This document shows positions 7,562-28,218 of a DNA stretch of 28,820 bases, piece after piece. Position 1 is the first letter of the stretch; each line of letters begins with the position of its first letter. The notes under the pieces were generated by a model. The model saw only the letters and a list, made by a program, of their open reading frames with translations, had not been told where the DNA came from and did not search any database. The translations under genes were made by a program, and so were the position numbers. This DNA is from Gammaproteobacteria bacterium (GTDB lineage Bacteria > Pseudomonadota > Gammaproteobacteria > Chromatiales > Chromatiaceae): contig JAHEHQ010000001.1 in NCBI GenBank assembly GCA_024644505.1, forward strand, positions 1 to 28,820, in the 5' to 3' direction.

Positions 7562-9388
7562 TCAATATAATAGTGACGGAGTACTGGCCTCACCCAGAGA
7601 ATGGCTGCGAAGCAGATCCAGAAATCGGCTTCCATAGCGTTTGAGCTTCTGTTCGCCCACACCGCTGATGCCGCGCATCTGCTCCGGGTTCTCGGGCTGT
7701 CGTTCCGCCATCTCATGCAGTGTCCTGTCGTGGAAAATGATATAGGGGGGCACCCCCTGCTCCCTGGCGATCTCGGTGCGCAGGTTTCGCAGGGCATCGA
7801 ACAAACCCGGATTCCGGGTTTGTATCGGAGGCTGTTTCGCCGGTTTCTTCGTCTGTTTTTCCCTGGGCTTGTGCTTGCGCAACTGCAGCCCCGTTTCACC
7901 CCGCAGCAGCGGCCGGCAGGTCCCGCTCAGGCGCAGCGCACCGTAGCCCCCCGGATCTATGTCGATATAACCCCGGGAGATCAGCTGACGAAACAGGCTG
8001 CGCCACTGCGCGACGCTCTGCTCCCCGCCGATGCCGAAGGTACTGATCCGGTCATGGCCATTGCGGCGGATGCGTTCATCCGCTTTTCCCCGCAGCACGT
8101 CGATCACATAATTCACCCCGAAACCCTGGCCCGTGCGGTAGACGCAGGAGAGTGCCATGCGTGCGTACTCGGAGGCATCCCAGGTCTGTGGGGGCCTCAG
8201 GCAGTTGTCGCAGTTGCCGCAGGGTTCTTGCCGGGTCTCGCCGAAATAGGCCAGCAGGGCCTGCCTGCGGCAACCGGTCAGATCACAGAGCCCCAGCAGG
8301 GATTCGAGCTTTTGATGGGCAATGCGTTTGAACTGCTCCTCGGCATCGGTGTCAAGAACGAACTGGCGCAGCGTGATGAGATCCTGCAGCCCGTACAGCA
8401 TCCAGGCATCCGCCGGTTCACCGTCCCGGCCCGCGCGGCCGGTTTCCTGATAATAGGCCTCCACACTCTTGGGCAGATTCAGGTGGGCGACGAACCGCAC
8501 ATCGGGCTTGTCGATCCCCATACCGAAAGCAATGGTCGCAACAATGACCAACCCGTCTTCCCTCAGGAATCTCTCCTGGTGAAGCCTGCGCTCCTCCTGG
8601 GAGAGCCCGGCATGATAAGGCAGGGCGGTTCGTCCCTTATCACACAGCCAGTTCGCCACCTCATCCACACGTTTGCGCGACAGACAATAGATGATCCCTG
8701 CATCGTCGGGGTGCTCCCGCTCCAGGAAATGCCACAACTGGCTCTTGGCGTTCACCGCCTCGCCTATGCTGTAGCGGATGTTCGGCCGGTCGAAGCTGCT
8801 GACGAACTGTCCCGCCCTGTGCAGATCGAGCTGATCGACGATCTCCCTGCGCGTGCGCATGTCGGCGGTTGCTGTCAGGGCGATGCGGGGAACCCGGGGA
8901 TAGCGTTCGTGCAGAACGGACAACTGCTGATAATCCTTTCGAAAATCATGTCCCCACTGGGAAACGCAGTGTGCCTCGTCGATGGCGAACAGGGCGACCT
9001 CCACCCGATCGAGAATACTCAGCATCTGGGGCATGAGCAGCCTCTCCGGTGCCACATACAGCAGGCTCAATTCGCCGTCGAGCAGATCCTGCTCGACCTG
9101 CCTTCGGCTCCGGGCATCGAGACTGGAGTTGAGGAAGGCCGCAGAGATGCCGAGCTGGCGCAGGGCGTCCACCTGATCCTGCATCAATGCGATCAGGGGA
9201 GAAACTACAATACCCACACCTTCCCGCACCAGGGCGGGAATCTGATAACAGAGGGACTTGCCGCCCCCGGTCGGCATCAGGATCAGGGCGTCGCCCCCAT
9301 TGATCAATGTCTCGATCACTTCCGCCTGGTTGTGGCGAAACCCATCGAATCCGAACACATCCTTGAGAATACGCCTGGCCTGCTCCAT
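7562..9388 (-). CDS. recQ: ATP-dependent DNA helicase RecQ (with RQC and HRDC domains)
   Basis: Motifs [61 protein letters not shown]...CGNCDNC and [19 protein letters not shown] upstream. Confidence 0.98.
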
Positions 9389-9458
9389 GGGTGTATTGTA
9401 CCTCAGGTAATCAGTATTCCATCAGTGCGTGCCCAATGCGGTTAATTCCCAGCCCCGG

Positions 9459-9467
9459 TGCTATACT
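9459..9467 (+). promoter_or_regulatory. Extended -10 sigma70-type promoter element
   Basis: TGcTATACT lies 47 nt upstream of ATG 9515. No good -35 is seen. Confidence 0.5.
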
Positions 9468-9514
9468 CCAAGCCGATCAAGATCGAAGCGCCGGAAAATA
9501 AAGAGGATAAGTCC

Positions 9515-11020
9515 ATGCAATTTTCTCGAAAGACCATTGTGCTCTTCATCGCCGCAGGATCCCTGATGCTGGGCATCCAGAATGCCTCGGCAATGGGCAT
9601 GGGGTGTTCCCCTCTTAACAAGCCATCCGGATACACGGAAAACCGATTCGACCGAACCCGGGCTGTTACCCACCGGGATTTCCGGCAATCCCCGCGGCCC
9701 GCCTACAGGCCTCCGGCGCCCGTGGGGCAAATGCCTGCCCGGCACCGATATGAAAGATATGCGATGCCGGGTCGCGGTTACCCGATCCGGCACAACCCCC
9801 GCGCCATGCGCCATGCACATCCCCACCCTATGCGTCATACCCCGCCCCGCCGTTGGGAGGCGCATGCCCAAAGAGGATACGGCAATCCCCAATGGCGCCC
9901 CGTACAGCACTTCAGCCCCCCCGGCAGCTTGCCATGGGGAATGCCCAGGCCCGGGTGGGGCACCGGCCCGGTTCATGCCGTTGGCTTAGATCCGCGCAGA
10001 CATGCCGCAAGATATCCTTATCCCCCCATGGGACGATACCTGGCACAGCCCTATCGAATACAGCCACCCTACCCCGGCATGCCGGGACCCGGCACCCGAA
10101 ATCACCATTATGGCCAGGGCAACCAGAACATCCCGGCCCGATGGCAGCGCCATGTGTACAGACCCATGCCGCCCCGCGCCTACGCCTATGGTCGGCCCGG
10201 CTGGTACGGCAGGCCGCCGGTTTATGCCTACCGCGGACCGGTCTGGCAGCCTCCCGGGGCAGCCTGGCGCCCATCTGCCGGCAGGCAGCTCCGCCCCTAT
10301 TACGCGATGCCCCACAGCGGGCCCGGCATGAGAATGGGGAGGCCTTTCAGCCCAATGGGGACCAGGCCCTGGACACGCTGGGAACAACACACCCCAAAGG
10401 CAGCGCGCACCGACGCAGACGCCAGGCGTGCACCGGCTCCCGCCACCCCTGTCTCCAACCAGACCGCGGAAATCCGGACGGAGCCGCAGACAGCGCCCCA
10501 TGGGATAGACCCAACAGTACCGGTATCGCTGCCGGAACCGGAAGCAGACCTGAAATCTTCGGAAACCCCGGCCGCCCCTGTTGCGGAAGATGATGCGGAC
10601 AGCCTGCCCGGCGTGGTCGAACCCTTCGACTCCTCACCCTCGCCCCGGGAACCGGCGGGAACCGGGAGAACGGCAGGGACCGCGGCCCTTGATGGGGTAA
10701 GAGAAGAAAGCCGCCCGGAAACCACCGATCATTCTCTGTCGACAAACGGAGTCCGGGGTGCCTACCAGACCTCTCCAGGCAAACGGCAAACTATGGCGAA
10801 TGAGGACGGGGTTAGATCCGCAGACCTGGGGGACGGGCGGAAAAACCTGGCGTCGTCAGATCCGGCAGACCCAATCGCAAAGCCGGGGGCGCCCCCGTAC
10901 GGGGATATGCCGACCGGAATTTCCGCGCCCCCCATCCCGACGCTTGCCGCCGGCGAGCACACCTTCCAACCAGGCTATGGGCGGGAAACCGGGGGGGCCT
11001 CTGTCTTGATAAGGCCCTGA
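9515..11020 (+). CDS. Exported low-complexity Pro/Arg/Tyr/Gly-rich protein of unknown function
   Basis: RBS AGAGGA precedes ATG 9515. Signal peptide MQFSRKTIVLFIAAGSLMLGIQNASA. It is the only ORF filling the 1.5 kb between recQ and topA, and its Tyr/Trp enrichment is not expected of a GC-rich shadow ORF. Confidence 0.75.
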   Translation: MQFSRKTIVLFIAAGSLMLGIQNASAMGMGCSPLNKPSGYTENRFDRTRAVTHRDFRQSPRPAYRPPAPVGQMPARHRYERYAMPGRGYPIRHNPRAMRHAHPHPMRHTPPRRWEAHAQRGYGNPQWRPVQHFSPPGSLPWGMPRPGWGTGPVHAVGLDPRRHAARYPYPPMGRYLAQPYRIQPPYPGMPGPGTRNHHYGQGNQNIPARWQRHVYRPMPPRAYAYGRPGWYGRPPVYAYRGPVWQPPGAAWRPSAGRQLRPYYAMPHSGPGMRMGRPFSPMGTRPWTRWEQHTPKAARTDADARRAPAPATPVSNQTAEIRTEPQTAPHGIDPTVPVSLPEPEADLKSSETPAAPVAEDDADSLPGVVEPFDSSPSPREPAGTGRTAGTAALDGVREESRPETTDHSLSTNGVRGAYQTSPGKRQTMANEDGVRSADLGDGRKNLASSDPADPIAKPGAPPYGDMPTGISAPPIPTLAAGEHTFQPGYGRETGGASVLIRP

Positions 11021-13296
11021 GACTCCTCCACAGGCTCTGAATAGCTGCAGGCCTTCTGGGGGCAAACCTTGGAAGTCCCCTTGGTCTTGGTCGTCTTGAC
11101 GGTCAGGATCGGCCAACCGCAGCGGGGGCAGGGCTCCGCCACCGGCTCGTTCCAGGTTGCGTAATCGCACGACGGGTAGGTGGAGCAGGAAAAGAATATT
11201 TTTCCACGCCGTGACTTGCGGCGCATCAGTGTACCCTTATTGCACTTCGGACAGGTCACGCCGGTATCCACCGGCTTCTCCAGGGGCTCGATAAAGCGGC
11301 AGCCTGGATAGCTGCTGCAACCGATGAATTTTCCGTATTTCCCTTTCTTGATCACCAGATCCGAACCGCACTCGGGACACTTGCGACCCTCTACGATTTC
11401 AGGCACCTCCTGCTCTCTGGCGTTGCCATTGAGGTCTCTGGTGTAGTCGCAAGTGGGGTAGTCGGTGCAGCCGACGAAGCGGCCGTGCCGACCGAGACGG
11501 ATGGACAGCGGCTTCCCGCACTTGGGGCAGGCCTCGTCCATCGCTTCCTGGGTCACGTCGCTGCGCTTGACGTTGTCCTGGGTGTGATCGATCCGCTCCT
11601 TGAAAGGCTGCCAGAACTGCTTCAGCAGCGGGACCCACTCTTCCTCGCCCCGGGAGACCGCGTCCAGTTCGTCCTCCAGCCTGGCGGTGAAATCATAGTC
11701 CACATAACGCGCAAAATAGCGGGTCAGAAAACGGTTTACCACCCGGCCCACGTCGGTGGGATGAAACCGCTTCTTTTCCAGCACCACGTATTCCCGGTCC
11801 TGGAGGGTGGAAATGATGGACGCATAGGTGGAGGGGCGCCCGATGCCATGCTCTTCCAGCGCCTTCACCAGGCTTGCCTCGCTGTACCTGGGCGGCGGTT
11901 CCGTAAAATGCTGCTCCGGCCGGATACCCTTTAACGAGACCGCCTCACCCTCCTTGAGAGGGGGCAGCATTTTCTCGTCATCGTCTGTTTTCTTGGCATC
12001 ATCCACGCCCTCCATGTATACCAGCATGAAACCGGGATTCGCTATGGTCGAACCGGTGGCGCGAAAGCTGTTGCCCTGACCGCATGCGAGATCCACCGTG
12101 ACCGTGTCGATGGTGGCGTGGATCATCTGGGACGCGACGGTCCGCTTCCAGATCAACTCGTACAGCCGGTGCTGATCCCGGGTCAGGTGGTCCTTGAGCC
12201 TGTCCGGGGTGCGCTCCACGGAGGTCGGGCGGATGGCTTCGTGGGCCTCCTGGGCGTTCTTCGCCTTGGTCTTGTAGCGGCGCGGCTCCGCGGGCAGGTG
12301 CGAGTTATCGAAGCGGTTCGCGATATAGGCTCGCAACTCGGTCAGCGCCTCGTCCGCCAGATTGACGGAGTCGGTACGCATGTAGGTGATCAGGCCCACC
12401 GCGCCCTCGCCGGTATCCATACCCTCGTACAACTGCTGGGCGGTGCGCATGGTCCGCTGGGCGGTGAAGCCGAGTTTTCGCGCTGCCTCCTGCTGCAGCG
12501 TCGAGGTCGTGAAGGGAGCGGCGGGGTTGCGACGGCGCTGCTTTTTCTGCACCTTGTCCACGATCAGGCGGCCGCCCGCCGCATCGTTCAGTATTTTTTC
12601 GGCAGCGGCCGCGCTTTCGCCATCGGTGATGCTGAACTGCTCCAGCCTGTTTCCCTGATAGGTGTGGAGCTTGGCGCTGAACGCCTGACGGTCCTTTTTC
12701 AGATCCGCTTCGATGGTCCAGTACTCCCGCGCCCGGAAGGCCTCGATCTCCTCTTCCCGCTCCACGATCATACGCAGCGCGGGGCTCTGGACCCGGCCGG
12801 CGGAGAGACCGCGGCGCACCTTCTTCCATAACAAAGGCGACAGATTGAAACCCACCAGGTAGTCCAGGGCCCGCCTCGCCTGCTGGGCGTTGACCAGATC
12901 CATGGACAGGTCCCGCGGGTGCTCTATGGCCTCCTGGATGGCATTTTTCGTGATCTCATTGAAGACCACGCGGTGCACGGTCTTGTCCTTGAGATGACGA
13001 CGGCTCTTGAGCAGTTCGTAGAGGTGCCAGGAGATCGCCTCCCCCTCCCGGTCCGGGTCAGTGGCGAGATAGAGGGCATCCGCCCCCTTGAGGGCCTTGC
13101 TGATGGCCTGCACATGGCGGTCGTTCCGGTCGATGACCTGGTATTTCATCCGGAACCCGCTTTCGGGATCCACCGCCCCCTCTTTCGGGACCAGGTCTCT
13201 GACATGCCCATAGGAGGCGAGTACCTTGAAATCTTTTCCAAGGTACTTGTTGATGGTCTTGGCCTTGGCCGGGGACTCGACGATAACAAGGTTCAT
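10975..13296 (-). CDS. topA: DNA topoisomerase I with four C-terminal zinc ribbons
   Basis: Motifs LVIVESPAKAKTI, ATDPDREGEAI, SAGRVQSPAL, ITYMRTDS, AHEAIRPT and GIGRPSTY. Zinc ribbons start CPKC, CPEC, CPKC and CPRC. Confidence 0.98.
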   Translation of the reverse strand: MNLVIVESPAKAKTINKYLGKDFKVLASYGHVRDLVPKEGAVDPESGFRMKYQVIDRNDRHVQAISKALKGADALYLATDPDREGEAISWHLYELLKSRRHLKDKTVHRVVFNEITKNAIQEAIEHPRDLSMDLVNAQQARRALDYLVGFNLSPLLWKKVRRGLSAGRVQSPALRMIVEREEEIEAFRAREYWTIEADLKKDRQAFSAKLHTYQGNRLEQFSITDGESAAAAEKILNDAAGGRLIVDKVQKKQRRRNPAAPFTTSTLQQEAARKLGFTAQRTMRTAQQLYEGMDTGEGAVGLITYMRTDSVNLADEALTELRAYIANRFDNSHLPAEPRRYKTKAKNAQEAHEAIRPTSVERTPDRLKDHLTRDQHRLYELIWKRTVASQMIHATIDTVTVDLACGQGNSFRATGSTIANPGFMLVYMEGVDDAKKTDDDEKMLPPLKEGEAVSLKGIRPEQHFTEPPPRYSEASLVKALEEHGIGRPSTYASIISTLQDREYVVLEKKRFHPTDVGRVVNRFLTRYFARYVDYDFTARLEDELDAVSRGEEEWVPLLKQFWQPFKERIDHTQDNVKRSDVTQEAMDEACPKCGKPLSIRLGRHGRFVGCTDYPTCDYTRDLNGNAREQEVPEIVEGRKCPECGSDLVIKKGKYGKFIGCSSYPGCRFIEPLEKPVDTGVTCPKCNKGTLMRRKSRRGKIFFSCSTYPSCDYATWNEPVAEPCPRCGWPILTVKTTKTKGTSKVCPQKACSYSEPVEESQGLIKTEAPPVSRP

Positions 13297-26316: not shown

Positions 26317-26730
26317 TCAATACGTGATTATCTGGCCCTTGCCGAGTATCGCGTTGAACATGGCATGGAGCGACCTTGCCTCTATGGGTTTGGCAACGAA
26401 TCGGGATGCACCGCAGCGCTCGGCTTCAGACGCCTTTCCCCCTGAAGCCAGTCCGCTGTACAGGATTACCGGCAGACCCGGCTGCAGGCGGTGCAGTTGC
26501 TGCATCAGTTCGGTCCCGACACCGTCGGGCAGATTGTAATCGAGCAGTGCGAGATCGAACCGGGTTTCCGAGATCGCGTCCAGTGCCTCGCCGCAGCTGG
26601 CGGCAGTCGTGACCTGATACCCCAGTTCCTCGAACTCCCAGCGCATCATGCACAACAGGGATTTGTCATCCTCGGTTATCAGCAGCTTTCTGGCGGTCTG
26701 CTGATCGGACTCCCGGGAGTGAGGGGCCAT
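26317..26730 (-). CDS. Stand-alone receiver (CheY-like) domain protein
   Basis: LLITEDD, LALLDYNLPDG, VILYSG and FVAKP show the phospho-acceptor residues intact. No output domain and no evident SD sequence. Confidence 0.88.
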   Translation of the reverse strand: MAPHSRESDQQTARKLLITEDDKSLLCMMRWEFEELGYQVTTAASCGEALDAISETRFDLALLDYNLPDGVGTELMQQLHRLQPGLPVILYSGLASGGKASEAERCGASRFVAKPIEARSLHAMFNAILGKGQIITY

Positions 26731-27264
26731 TCAGGCAACCAGTGTATCGCGCAATTTCTGCTTGGCCCGAAACAGCCGGGTGCCGACACCGGCGGAAGAG
26801 ATACCAATCTGACCCGCTATCTCCTTCTGGGAGTAGCCTTCCACCACCTGTTTCACCAGTGGTACCCGGTATTCCTCCGGCAGGTTGTCGATGGCACGAC
26901 GCAGCACGAAGGCTTCAGTGGAAGTGTCGTAACTGGCCTCCCTGGCCTTGAGTTCGTCCAGCGGAATACTTGCTTCCTGGGGGCGATAACGCTCGAAGCG
27001 CCGCGCATTCTCCCGACGCAGGATGGTAAGCAGCCAGCCCTTGGCGGAATCGATGCTCTGGAGTTTGTCGAACGAACGCCAGGCTCTCAGCAACGCCTCC
27101 TGCACCAGGTCCTCGGCAATGTGCCTATCCCCGGCCAGCCAATAAGCGTATCGCTTCATGTCGGTTTCGTAGCGGGAGATCATGTCATTGAAACGCCGCT
27201 CCCGGGCAAATGCGAAAAAGTCTCTGTTTGTCTGGTTGTTTACTTCCAGGGCGGCGTCGGTCAT
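26731..27264 (-). CDS. ECF-family sigma-70 factor
   Basis: Region 2 motifs RYAYWL, AEDLVQEALLRAW and GWLLTILRRE. Region 4 motif LPEEYR...GYSQKEIA...TRLFRAKQKL. RBS GAGGA. Confidence 0.94.
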   Translation of the reverse strand: MTDAALEVNNQTNRDFFAFARERRFNDMISRYETDMKRYAYWLAGDRHIAEDLVQEALLRAWRSFDKLQSIDSAKGWLLTILRRENARRFERYRPQEASIPLDELKAREASYDTSTEAFVLRRAIDNLPEEYRVPLVKQVVEGYSQKEIAGQIGISSAGVGTRLFRAKQKLRDTLVA

Positions 27265-27314
27265 GGTCGTAGTCCTCTGAAATAATCATTGCAACTCTCT
27301 TGCCCTTAAGAGAA

Positions 27315-27330
27315 TGCAGATGCCATGCCA
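27315..27330 (-). promoter_or_regulatory. Sigma54 (-24/-12) promoter candidate for the ECF sigma gene
   Basis: The minus strand reads TGGCATGGCATCTGCA against consensus TGGCACGNNNNTTGCW, with exact GG-N10-GC spacing, 50 nt upstream of the start codon. Confidence 0.72.
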
Positions 27331-27335
27331 ACTTT

Positions 27336-27348
27336 TAACTAATTGAAT
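27336..27348 (-). promoter_or_regulatory. IHF-like binding site
   Basis: The minus strand reads ATTCAATTAGTTA against WATCAANNNNTTR (one mismatch), in an AT-rich tract just upstream of the -24 element. Confidence 0.45.
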
Positions 27349-27447
27349 TTAATATATTTAATGCCTTTCTAATAGACCTGTTCGTAACAAATCATTACAA
27401 CGATTCGTGGAACTTAACGAAACGTGAAACCCTCCGCCGGTGGCTGT

Positions 27448-28173
27448 TCACACACCCTTTTTGAGCAGACGACGCACCACGGAAAGATGCCGCCGGCTGA
27501 TCTCCAGACGCTCACCCGTGCCTTCCAGGCGTGCCAGGCAGCGCCCGTCCGGTTCCTTATCCAGACCCATCAGGCGCTGTTGCGACACCAGCGCATTGCG
27601 ATGAATCCTCACGAATCGTCCGGCATATCGGTCCTCGAGTGTTTTAAGACTCTCCTCGAGCAGCGCCTCACCCCCGGGATGACAAGCGGTTACGTACTTG
27701 TGATCCGCTCGAAAAAAGATAATTTCATCCAAGGGAATGCGCTTGATGCCACCCCTGTAAACGGTGCTGATATAGTCCTTGACCGGATCCTGGATCGCCT
27801 GGATCTGGGGCCGTGTGGGTACTTGCACTTGGTACAGCGCCTTCTTGAGGCGATAACTTCGAACCGGTTTGAGCAGATAGTTCAGGGCATGCCCCTGAAA
27901 GGCGTGGAGGGCGTGTTCCTCATAGGCAGACACGAAGATGACCGCCGGCGGATTGTCCAGTCGGGCAATCCGCGCGGCCGCCTCGACACCGTCCATGACA
28001 GGCATCCTGATATCCAGCAGAACCAGATCCACCTCCATTGCCTGGCAGCACTCAATGGCCTCACGACCGTTGGCTGCCTCACCGACAACGCGGTACGGCT
28101 CACCCATGTCCAAAAGCATCGAACCCAGGAGCTGCCGCGCCGGCGCCTCGTCATCAACGATCAGAATGTTCAT
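27448..28173 (-). CDS. LytTR-family response regulator (AlgR-like)
   Basis: Motifs ILIVDDEAPAR, LLDIRMPVMDG, IFVSAY, YLLKP, FRADHKYV, FVRIHRNALV and ISRR. Confidence 0.95.
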   Translation of the reverse strand: MNILIVDDEAPARQLLGSMLLDMGEPYRVVGEAANGREAIECCQAMEVDLVLLDIRMPVMDGVEAAARIARLDNPPAVIFVSAYEEHALHAFQGHALNYLLKPVRSYRLKKALYQVQVPTRPQIQAIQDPVKDYISTVYRGGIKRIPLDEIIFFRADHKYVTACHPGGEALLEESLKTLEDRYAGRFVRIHRNALVSQQRLMGLDKEPDGRCLARLEGTGERLEISRRHLSVVRRLLKKGV

Positions 28174-28218
28174 TCATCATTCCACAAATACCAGCTTTAA
28201 TTTTTTAACCCTCTGTAT

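Follow-up and report, generated by a model that had tools for sequence, protein, structure and literature searches.

What does the long open reading frame (ORF) between recQ and topA in a Chromatiaceae genome encode, and is it a gene at all? The stretch of DNA analysed here, called the window below, is 28,820 nucleotides (nt) long (contig JAHEHQ010000001.1 of assembly GCA_024644505.1, positions 1–28,820) and comes from a metagenome-assembled genome (MAG) of 2.86 Mb in 461 contigs with a completeness of 83%. The ORF is intact, runs on the + strand from an ATG at 9515 to a TGA at 11018–11020 and specifies 501 amino acids in 501 codons; recQ (7562–9388, − strand) lies upstream and topA (10975–13296, − strand) converges on it. 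A preliminary description of the locus, made from the sequence alone, had read the product as a large exported low-complexity protein with a basic and an acidic block, possibly a novel scaffold or a giant counterpart of the sulfur globule proteins (Sgps). Our analysis makes it highly probable that the ORF encodes a genuine exported, disordered orphan protein, and with moderate confidence we regard a genus-restricted, exported, disordered diblock protein that acts by its composition as the best explanation overall.

A frame of this length is seldom open by chance: at the local GC content, and with our own estimate of ~0.025 stops per codon, a 500-codon open frame has P ~3e-6. The frame is open over 481–513 codons in all seven homologous coding sequences retrieved, a set in which two entries are duplicate records of one locus in the same-genus genome G001 (L002 and L004) and two others are near-identical (L008 and L044). 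About 15 indels separate the aligned sequences, all of them multiples of three. When the observed substitutions were placed at random in simulations that kept their number and type, the frame remained open in 0.04–3% of trials, depending on the pair. The Nei–Gojobori ratio of nonsynonymous to synonymous substitution rates (dN/dS) is lowest in the ORF frame, at 0.49–0.54 for deep pairs, with a bootstrap 95% interval (0.38–0.69) that excludes 1. Coding in another frame or on the other strand was considered and rejected, as dN/dS is ~1 in four of the other frames, while the fifth, an antisense frame, is interrupted by stops and its value of 0.57–0.61 is the one expected if synonymous sites are shared with the ORF frame. 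The preliminary description had asked whether relatives carry stops or frameshifts without purifying selection; the frame is open in all seven sequences and also in the divergent counterpart from a third species of the genus (G002), and deep-pair dN/dS is below 1. Scans of the window for Rfam families and tRNAs returned nothing, and the ORF region has no nucleotide repeat array, just three trivial tandem repeats. Judged by these comparisons, the ORF is a real protein-coding gene.

Signals for its expression are in place and conserved. An extended −10 element of the form TG-n-TATACT (here TG-c-TATACT; 9459–9467, + strand) was read from the sequence, with a predicted transcript start at ~9474, and a Shine–Dalgarno (SD) sequence, AGAGGA (9502–9507, + strand), stands 7 nt before the ATG. 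Both elements, already named in the preliminary description, recur with the same spacing in all seven aligned upstream regions, and a purine-rich SD is kept in all orthologues. The upstream region of G002 is among the seven: its spacer is otherwise unalignable, yet the −10 element and the SD are retained. A generic sigma-70 scan, which needs both hexamers, found no promoter. As to the RNA itself, contigs from four sediment metatranscriptome runs of a single study cover the ORF at a word depth similar to that of recQ and topA; depth is about zero across the recQ–ORF spacer (9359–9509), and contigs start at 9487 and 9497. In addition, several other studies produced metatranscriptomes that contain 31-mers from inside the ORF. 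The ORF sequence is present in sediment RNA libraries, with the strand of the RNA unassigned, and this answers in part the call for a transcript check.

The product is predicted by sequence rule to be exported by the Sec pathway. Its first 26 residues (9515–9592, + strand), judged by eye and by rule, form, as had been proposed, a signal peptide, here of the Sec type: the n-region is basic (R5, K6), the hydrophobic core spans 14 residues, and A-S-A precedes position 27. The n-h-c layout, ending in A-S-A, A-A-A or V-Q-A, is kept in all eight sequences compared; because the A-x-A is conserved throughout, cleavage after it by signal peptidase I is probably favoured. The mature head that follows (residues 27–60; 9593–9694, + strand) carries the motif G-x-G-C-x-P with the sole conserved cysteine (Cys31, nt 9605–9607), which is present in 8/8 sequences, G002 included, and is the single cysteine of the protein in 7/8. 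The N-terminal 60 residues are the most conserved part of the protein (34 of 60 invariant), with dN/dS at 0.2–0.3 in most deep pairs.

Residues 61–295 (9695–10399, + strand) make up a cationic, aromatic, Pro/Gly-rich block that is predicted to be disordered from its composition and a predicted local distance difference test (pLDDT) score below 50. It consists of 20.4% P, 14.9% R, 11.5% G, 8.1% Y, 6.4% H, 5.1% M and 4.3% W, and has 35 R against 1 K, four acidic residues, a net charge of +32 and an isoelectric point (pI) of 11.7, in agreement with the basic P/R/G/Y/W/H/M-rich block of the preliminary description. Arginine accounts for 35 of its 36 basic residues, compared with a background of 69% (p = 4e-5). 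Within the close family, invariant positions fall preferentially (Fisher p = 2e-8) on Tyr (14/19), Pro (31/48) and Gly (14/27), and Trp, His, Met and Gln are not preferentially invariant. The His cluster that had been pointed out is indeed present (residues ~97–108 in the window protein), but it is deleted in the second clade. The remainder, residues 296–501 (10400–11017, + strand), is by composition an acidic Pro/Ala/Thr/Ser-rich disordered tail with a net charge of −12, a pI of 4.6 and five aromatic residues, which bears out the claim of a tail nearly free of aromatics. It is the least conserved part (26% invariant, dN/dS ~0.6), with one short conserved motif, P-x-P-T-L-A-A-G, near residues 473–480.

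The change from one block to the other is abrupt: cumulative charge peaks at residue 298 (~nt 10408), inside the interval of 10400–10440 where the switch had been placed. By this charge-defined boundary the mature first block (residues 27–298) has a net charge of +36, 11% Gly and 12.5% aromatics, and the first block holds 34 of the 39 aromatic residues (hypergeometric p = 3e-5). The mature chain of ~475 residues is predicted to be without a fold, since AlphaFold2, with an alignment depth of five sequences, returned a mean pLDDT of 36.6 and a single predicted helix that corresponds to the signal (residues 3–28). Two other kinds of architecture were rejected. Inspection revealed no hydrophobic C-terminal segment of the sort that PEP-CTERM or another C-terminal sorting signal would have, and the last ~10 residues vary by frameshift; a repeat array was dismissed for lack of tandem or internal repeats. 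When the whole MAG was scanned by composition, no second such protein turned up.

How far this design survives divergence can be seen in G002. Its TopA is 87% identical to that of the window, and in the same place, convergent on topA, lies an open ORF of 535 codons whose protein has 25% identity with the window protein over residues 1–257 (BLASTP E = 3e-7). The G002 protein retains a signal peptide ending in V-Q-A and a Cys at position 31 in G-x-x-G-C-x-P; its first block has a net charge of +17, 28 R against 2 K and 14% aromatics, and its tail has a net charge of −18 and 1.5% aromatics. The upstream neighbour in G002 (L014:1-3447) is not recQ but an RND efflux pair, consisting of a membrane fusion protein and a pump; of the surroundings, just the promoter of the gene and its linkage to topA are conserved. 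Because the design and the promoter persist through a decay to ~25% identity, the comparison argues for selection that acts on composition and charge-block pattern.

Relatives are few and close to home. A word-indexed search of 5.8 billion proteins returned four full-length metagenome relatives with 55–78% identity (query P0001), and with P0008 as query only that protein itself. A profile search of 1.84 billion representative proteins found the protein's own family and two fragments, nothing else; no match came from Pfam or NCBIfam at E <= 10, or from PDB sequences by phmmer at E <= 1, all in line with the novelty suggested at the outset. Pattern scans of genome and metagenome contigs recovered the G001 locus again and one more full-length copy, and otherwise further copies of the same two clades only. 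The same-genus genome G001 carries a relative; all full-length relatives are open and adjoin topA, and this synteny is kept in all species. The full-protein search matched G001 and none of 22 other genera, an N-terminal profile run against 121 genomes of the family matched all three genomes of the genus and nothing credible in the other 118, and no comparable ORF was found beside topA in 24 other genera. One weak match in G008 (E = 0.0015) lies antisense to an unrelated gene and was discarded as spurious, and ESM Atlas look-alikes of the homologue P0005 (TIGR03000, RcnB, PXPV; <= 0.81) were too weak to be used as evidence. No described relative or analogue was found in the literature on sulfur oxidisers. 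Judged by these searches, the gene is found only in one genus of a Chromatiales-labelled family that bears Sgp genes and dsrB, and its product belongs to no known family, although it can be grouped loosely with exported low-complexity envelope proteins.

Seen from its sequence, the product is best read as a fast-evolving disordered protein of the periplasm or envelope. For its mode of action we put forward a tentative scheme of a sticky block plus a brush, which draws on general polymer and protein knowledge for the roles of the block, the brush and the head cysteine. The mature chain would have three parts, a head of ~35 residues with one invariant Cys, an Arg/aromatic block of ~240 residues and an acidic tail of ~200 residues, and would act as a periplasmic or envelope diblock polyampholyte whose function lies in composition and block pattern, not in a fold. 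In this scheme stickiness would come from the Arg/aromatic block, with itself, a hydrophobic surface or an anionic polymer of the envelope as its binding partner; the acidic tail would extend as a solvated brush, and tethering or dimerisation of the chain would fall to the head cysteine. A role of the scaffold, adhesive or condensate type appears the most reasonable reading, because a fully disordered Arg/aromatic block is joined to an acidic tail.

Two groups of known proteins come close to this design. Arg/Tyr-rich low-complexity domains of the sticker-and-spacer type and block polyampholytes, such as FUS-type domains and marine adhesive proteins, drive condensation or coacervation. The window protein resembles them in its use of Arg over Lys together with Tyr and Trp, its Pro/Gly spacers, its predicted disorder and the placement of opposite charges in separate blocks. 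It differs in setting, as those systems are eukaryotic and either cytoplasmic or secreted as glue, whereas the predicted compartment here is the bacterial periplasm or envelope, and also in the spacing of its aromatics, which is not significantly even. TonB and TolA, in turn, are periplasm-spanning envelope proteins with long, extended Pro-rich regions and segregated acidic and basic stretches. Long Pro-rich regions with segregated charge are shared by the window protein, for which a location in the envelope is predicted. Unlike TonB and TolA, it is predicted to lack an uncleaved membrane anchor, and neither their C-terminal domains nor any other Pfam or NCBIfam domain was found in it; it lacks Glu-Pro/Lys-Pro repeats, with aromatics and Arg instead, and AlphaFold2 places no folded domain at its C-terminus.

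The comparison with Sgps deserves separate treatment, as the source genome has two genuine SGP genes (PF17228, 61–62 bits) and dsrB. No photosynthetic reaction centre was detected in it. SGP genes occur in 23 of the 24 family genomes sampled. The Sgps of Allochromatium are repetitive, Sec-exported proteins of 11–13 kDa, and SgpA–D share regularly spaced prolines and Sec signal peptides (PMC10386293). Like SgpA/B/C (PF17228) and SgpD of Chromatiaceae, the window protein is Sec-exported by prediction, of low complexity and enriched in Gly, Tyr, Trp and Pro, and it is encoded in the same genome as Sgps. It differs in having an Arg-cationic first block dominated by Pro and an acidic tail, and in sequence: the SGP profile has no match in the product even at E <= 10 (hmmscan, Pfam), and in BLASTP against the genome's own Sgp only the signal peptides align (E = 1.1). 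Proteins of the SGP family are small and, in composition, rich in Gly and Tyr and near-neutral or hydrophobic; those of this genome have mature lengths of ~105 residues, a net charge of −1, 30–34% Gly and 23–25% aromatics. The mature ORF product, with 475 residues, exceeds them in length more than fourfold, as the preliminary description had remarked in calling Sgps much smaller. The expectation that its distribution would follow sulfur-storing taxa was not borne out, the gene being found in one genus only whereas SGP is found nearly throughout the sampled family. What stands of the proposal of a novel scaffold or giant Sgp-like protein is a real, novel low-complexity protein with an export signal in a sulfur-storing bacterium; kinship with the Sgp family falls away, given the lack of profile or BLAST similarity and the narrower range. 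Beside one of the genuine sgp genes (L019:707-1369, − strand; contig C256 of the same genome) lies a gene for a 220-residue exported Gln/Glu/Ala-rich protein, whose predicted mature end begins with Trp-Trp, as in Sgps; from its sequence, this neighbour may be an SgpD-like globule protein.

Several observations weigh against the reading of a functional diblock protein, and they have to be set beside the alternatives. Constraint on the gene is weak: on the same contigs, the dN/dS of topA and recQ is 0.05–0.1 and their dN about six times lower, and among the three closest sequences dN/dS is 0.76–0.87, with intervals that include 1. Codon adaptation is poor, with a GC content at third codon positions (GC3) of 0.68 vs 0.755 and a mean log relative synonymous codon usage of 0.05 vs 0.14–0.29 in neighbouring genes. 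The RNA contigs are unstranded, and with topA convergent on the ORF and no terminator detected, antisense read-through is possible. No conserved adjacent partner gene that would hint at a process was found, nor is a gene for an outer-membrane barrel partner adjacent; the alignment behind the disorder prediction is shallow, and in a test against shuffles the evenness of aromatic spacing was not significant (p = 0.07–0.22), so that a stickers-and-spacers pattern is unsupported. Much of this would suit a gene of very recent, possibly de novo, origin that is expressed but drifts almost neutrally with little or no function, as would its restriction to one genus with only its own family in the profile search, its fully disordered product as predicted, and a C-terminal end that varies by frameshift. 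Retention of the open frame is nevertheless very improbable under neutrality, the indels are all in frame and deep-pair dN/dS is significantly below 1, and promoter, SD, signal peptide, Cys31 and two-block design survive divergence to 25% identity; we consider a near-neutral young gene very unlikely. In an unlikely but more credible alternative, Cys31 would be lipidated after cleavage by signal peptidase II, leaving the protein as a lipoprotein with its disordered chain anchored to the inner or outer membrane. The residue is invariant even in G002, lies within the first 35 residues and is the only Cys in seven of the eight sequences; a loose PROSITE PS51257-style rule accepts six of the eight, and if the protein is a lipoprotein, the Ser at +2 of Cys31 suggests the outer membrane. 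A canonical lipobox reads [LVI][ASTVI][GAS]-C at the end of the hydrophobic core. Here the residues before the Cys are G/V/N, M/W and G, of which those at −3 (G, V or N, in place of the usual Leu) and −2 (M or W) are atypical, and the core ends nine residues before the Cys; moreover, the rule fails in L005 and G002, and a canonical A-x-A for signal peptidase I lies four residues before the Cys in all eight sequences.

Binding of a metal such as copper in the periplasm would draw on the His/Met-rich stretches, given that the block contains 6.4% His and 5.1% Met and a local cluster in which His, Pro, Met and Arg alternate. That cluster, however, falls within the 10-residue deletion of the second clade, of the 15 His and 12 Met just 4 and 3, respectively, are invariant, and there is no match to any metal-binding family, which leaves this reading extremely improbable. 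A giant Sgp-like protein in the envelope of periplasmic sulfur globules, perhaps a genus-specific accessory coat and not a member of the Sgp family, would be at home in a family with SGP genes throughout and in a genome with dsrB, and would accord with the Sec export signal and with a first block enriched in Gly, Tyr, Trp, Pro and Arg; spaced prolines and Sec signals are known for SgpA–D (PMC10386293). Against it stand the absence of any SGP profile match, a BLASTP alignment with the genome's own Sgp that is limited to the signal peptide, the length of 475 vs ~105 residues, a first block at +36 vs −1 with a third of the Gly and half of the aromatics, the restriction to one genus, and the location between recQ and topA with no linkage to sgp, dsr or sox genes, and we rate it as distinctly unlikely. 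More speculative, and in our estimate hardly probable, is a genus-specific periplasmic diblock protein that would wet or disperse stored elemental sulfur or form an extracytoplasmic condensate around it, with the Arg/aromatic block adsorbing to hydrophobic sulfur, the acidic tail serving as a stabilising brush and the single Gly-flanked Cys of the head capping polysulfane chains covalently.

The wider neighbourhood of the ORF is made up of housekeeping genes (hemB, aroE, tsaC, purE, recQ, the ORF itself, topA, smg, dprA, a LysM protein gene, def, fmt, rsmB and trkAH). Its TGA (11018–11020, + strand) overlaps the site where, on the other strand, topA ended ancestrally. In the window, topA lacks this stop (10975–11019, − strand, the 3' end of topA): CTG at 11017–11019 reads CAG on the − strand where relatives have CTA, i.e. 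TAG, and the loss adds 14 codons and gives rise to a 46-nt overlap with the ORF. RNA contigs from related strains have an A at 11019, restoring the topA stop. Nearby, a G7 homopolymer (10991–10997, + strand) varies in length among strains, being G6 in L005 and one nt shorter (at 10991) in three of the four RNA runs; such changes shift the frame of the last ~10 ORF codons. As strains show four different C-terminal endings, the extreme C-terminus of the product is, judged by these sequences, unconstrained; an assembly error in the window at the homopolymer is possible. All four metatranscriptome runs also have a 3-nt in-frame deletion at 10630, by which one Ser of a Ser-Ser pair (~residue 372) is lost, the same state as in the other homologues. 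On the upstream side, the metagenome contig of the close relative L005 (1973–2300) has recQ shrunk to a 47-residue HRDC remnant by a deletion that stops ~100 nt short of the ORF ATG and leaves promoter and SD untouched. Elsewhere in the window, two ORFs on the + strand at 26491–27285 and 27424–28200 (264 and 258 amino acids) have no Pfam match at E <= 1e-5; the features flagged in the preliminary description in the area 26491–28200 lie on the opposite strand.

Exported, fully disordered proteins of bacteria are poorly understood, and most are dismissed as hypothetical. In the present family the sequence falls to ~25% identity within a single genus, and a signal peptide, one cysteine, an aromatic block that relies on Arg, an acidic tail nearly free of aromatics and a promoter persist. 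If the gene were instead young and nearly neutral, it would document how an orphan gene can persist between two housekeeping genes. If the sulfur-wetting proposal were true, the protein would belong to a second class of sulfur-globule-associated proteins besides the Sgps, and would be one of the rare cases of phase behaviour in the periplasm of bacteria. Should the mechanism of sticky block plus brush hold, the protein would lend itself to study as a candidate for condensate formation or coating in the periplasm, and could bear on how uncultured sulfur-oxidising sediment bacteria handle envelope polymers or insoluble sulfur.

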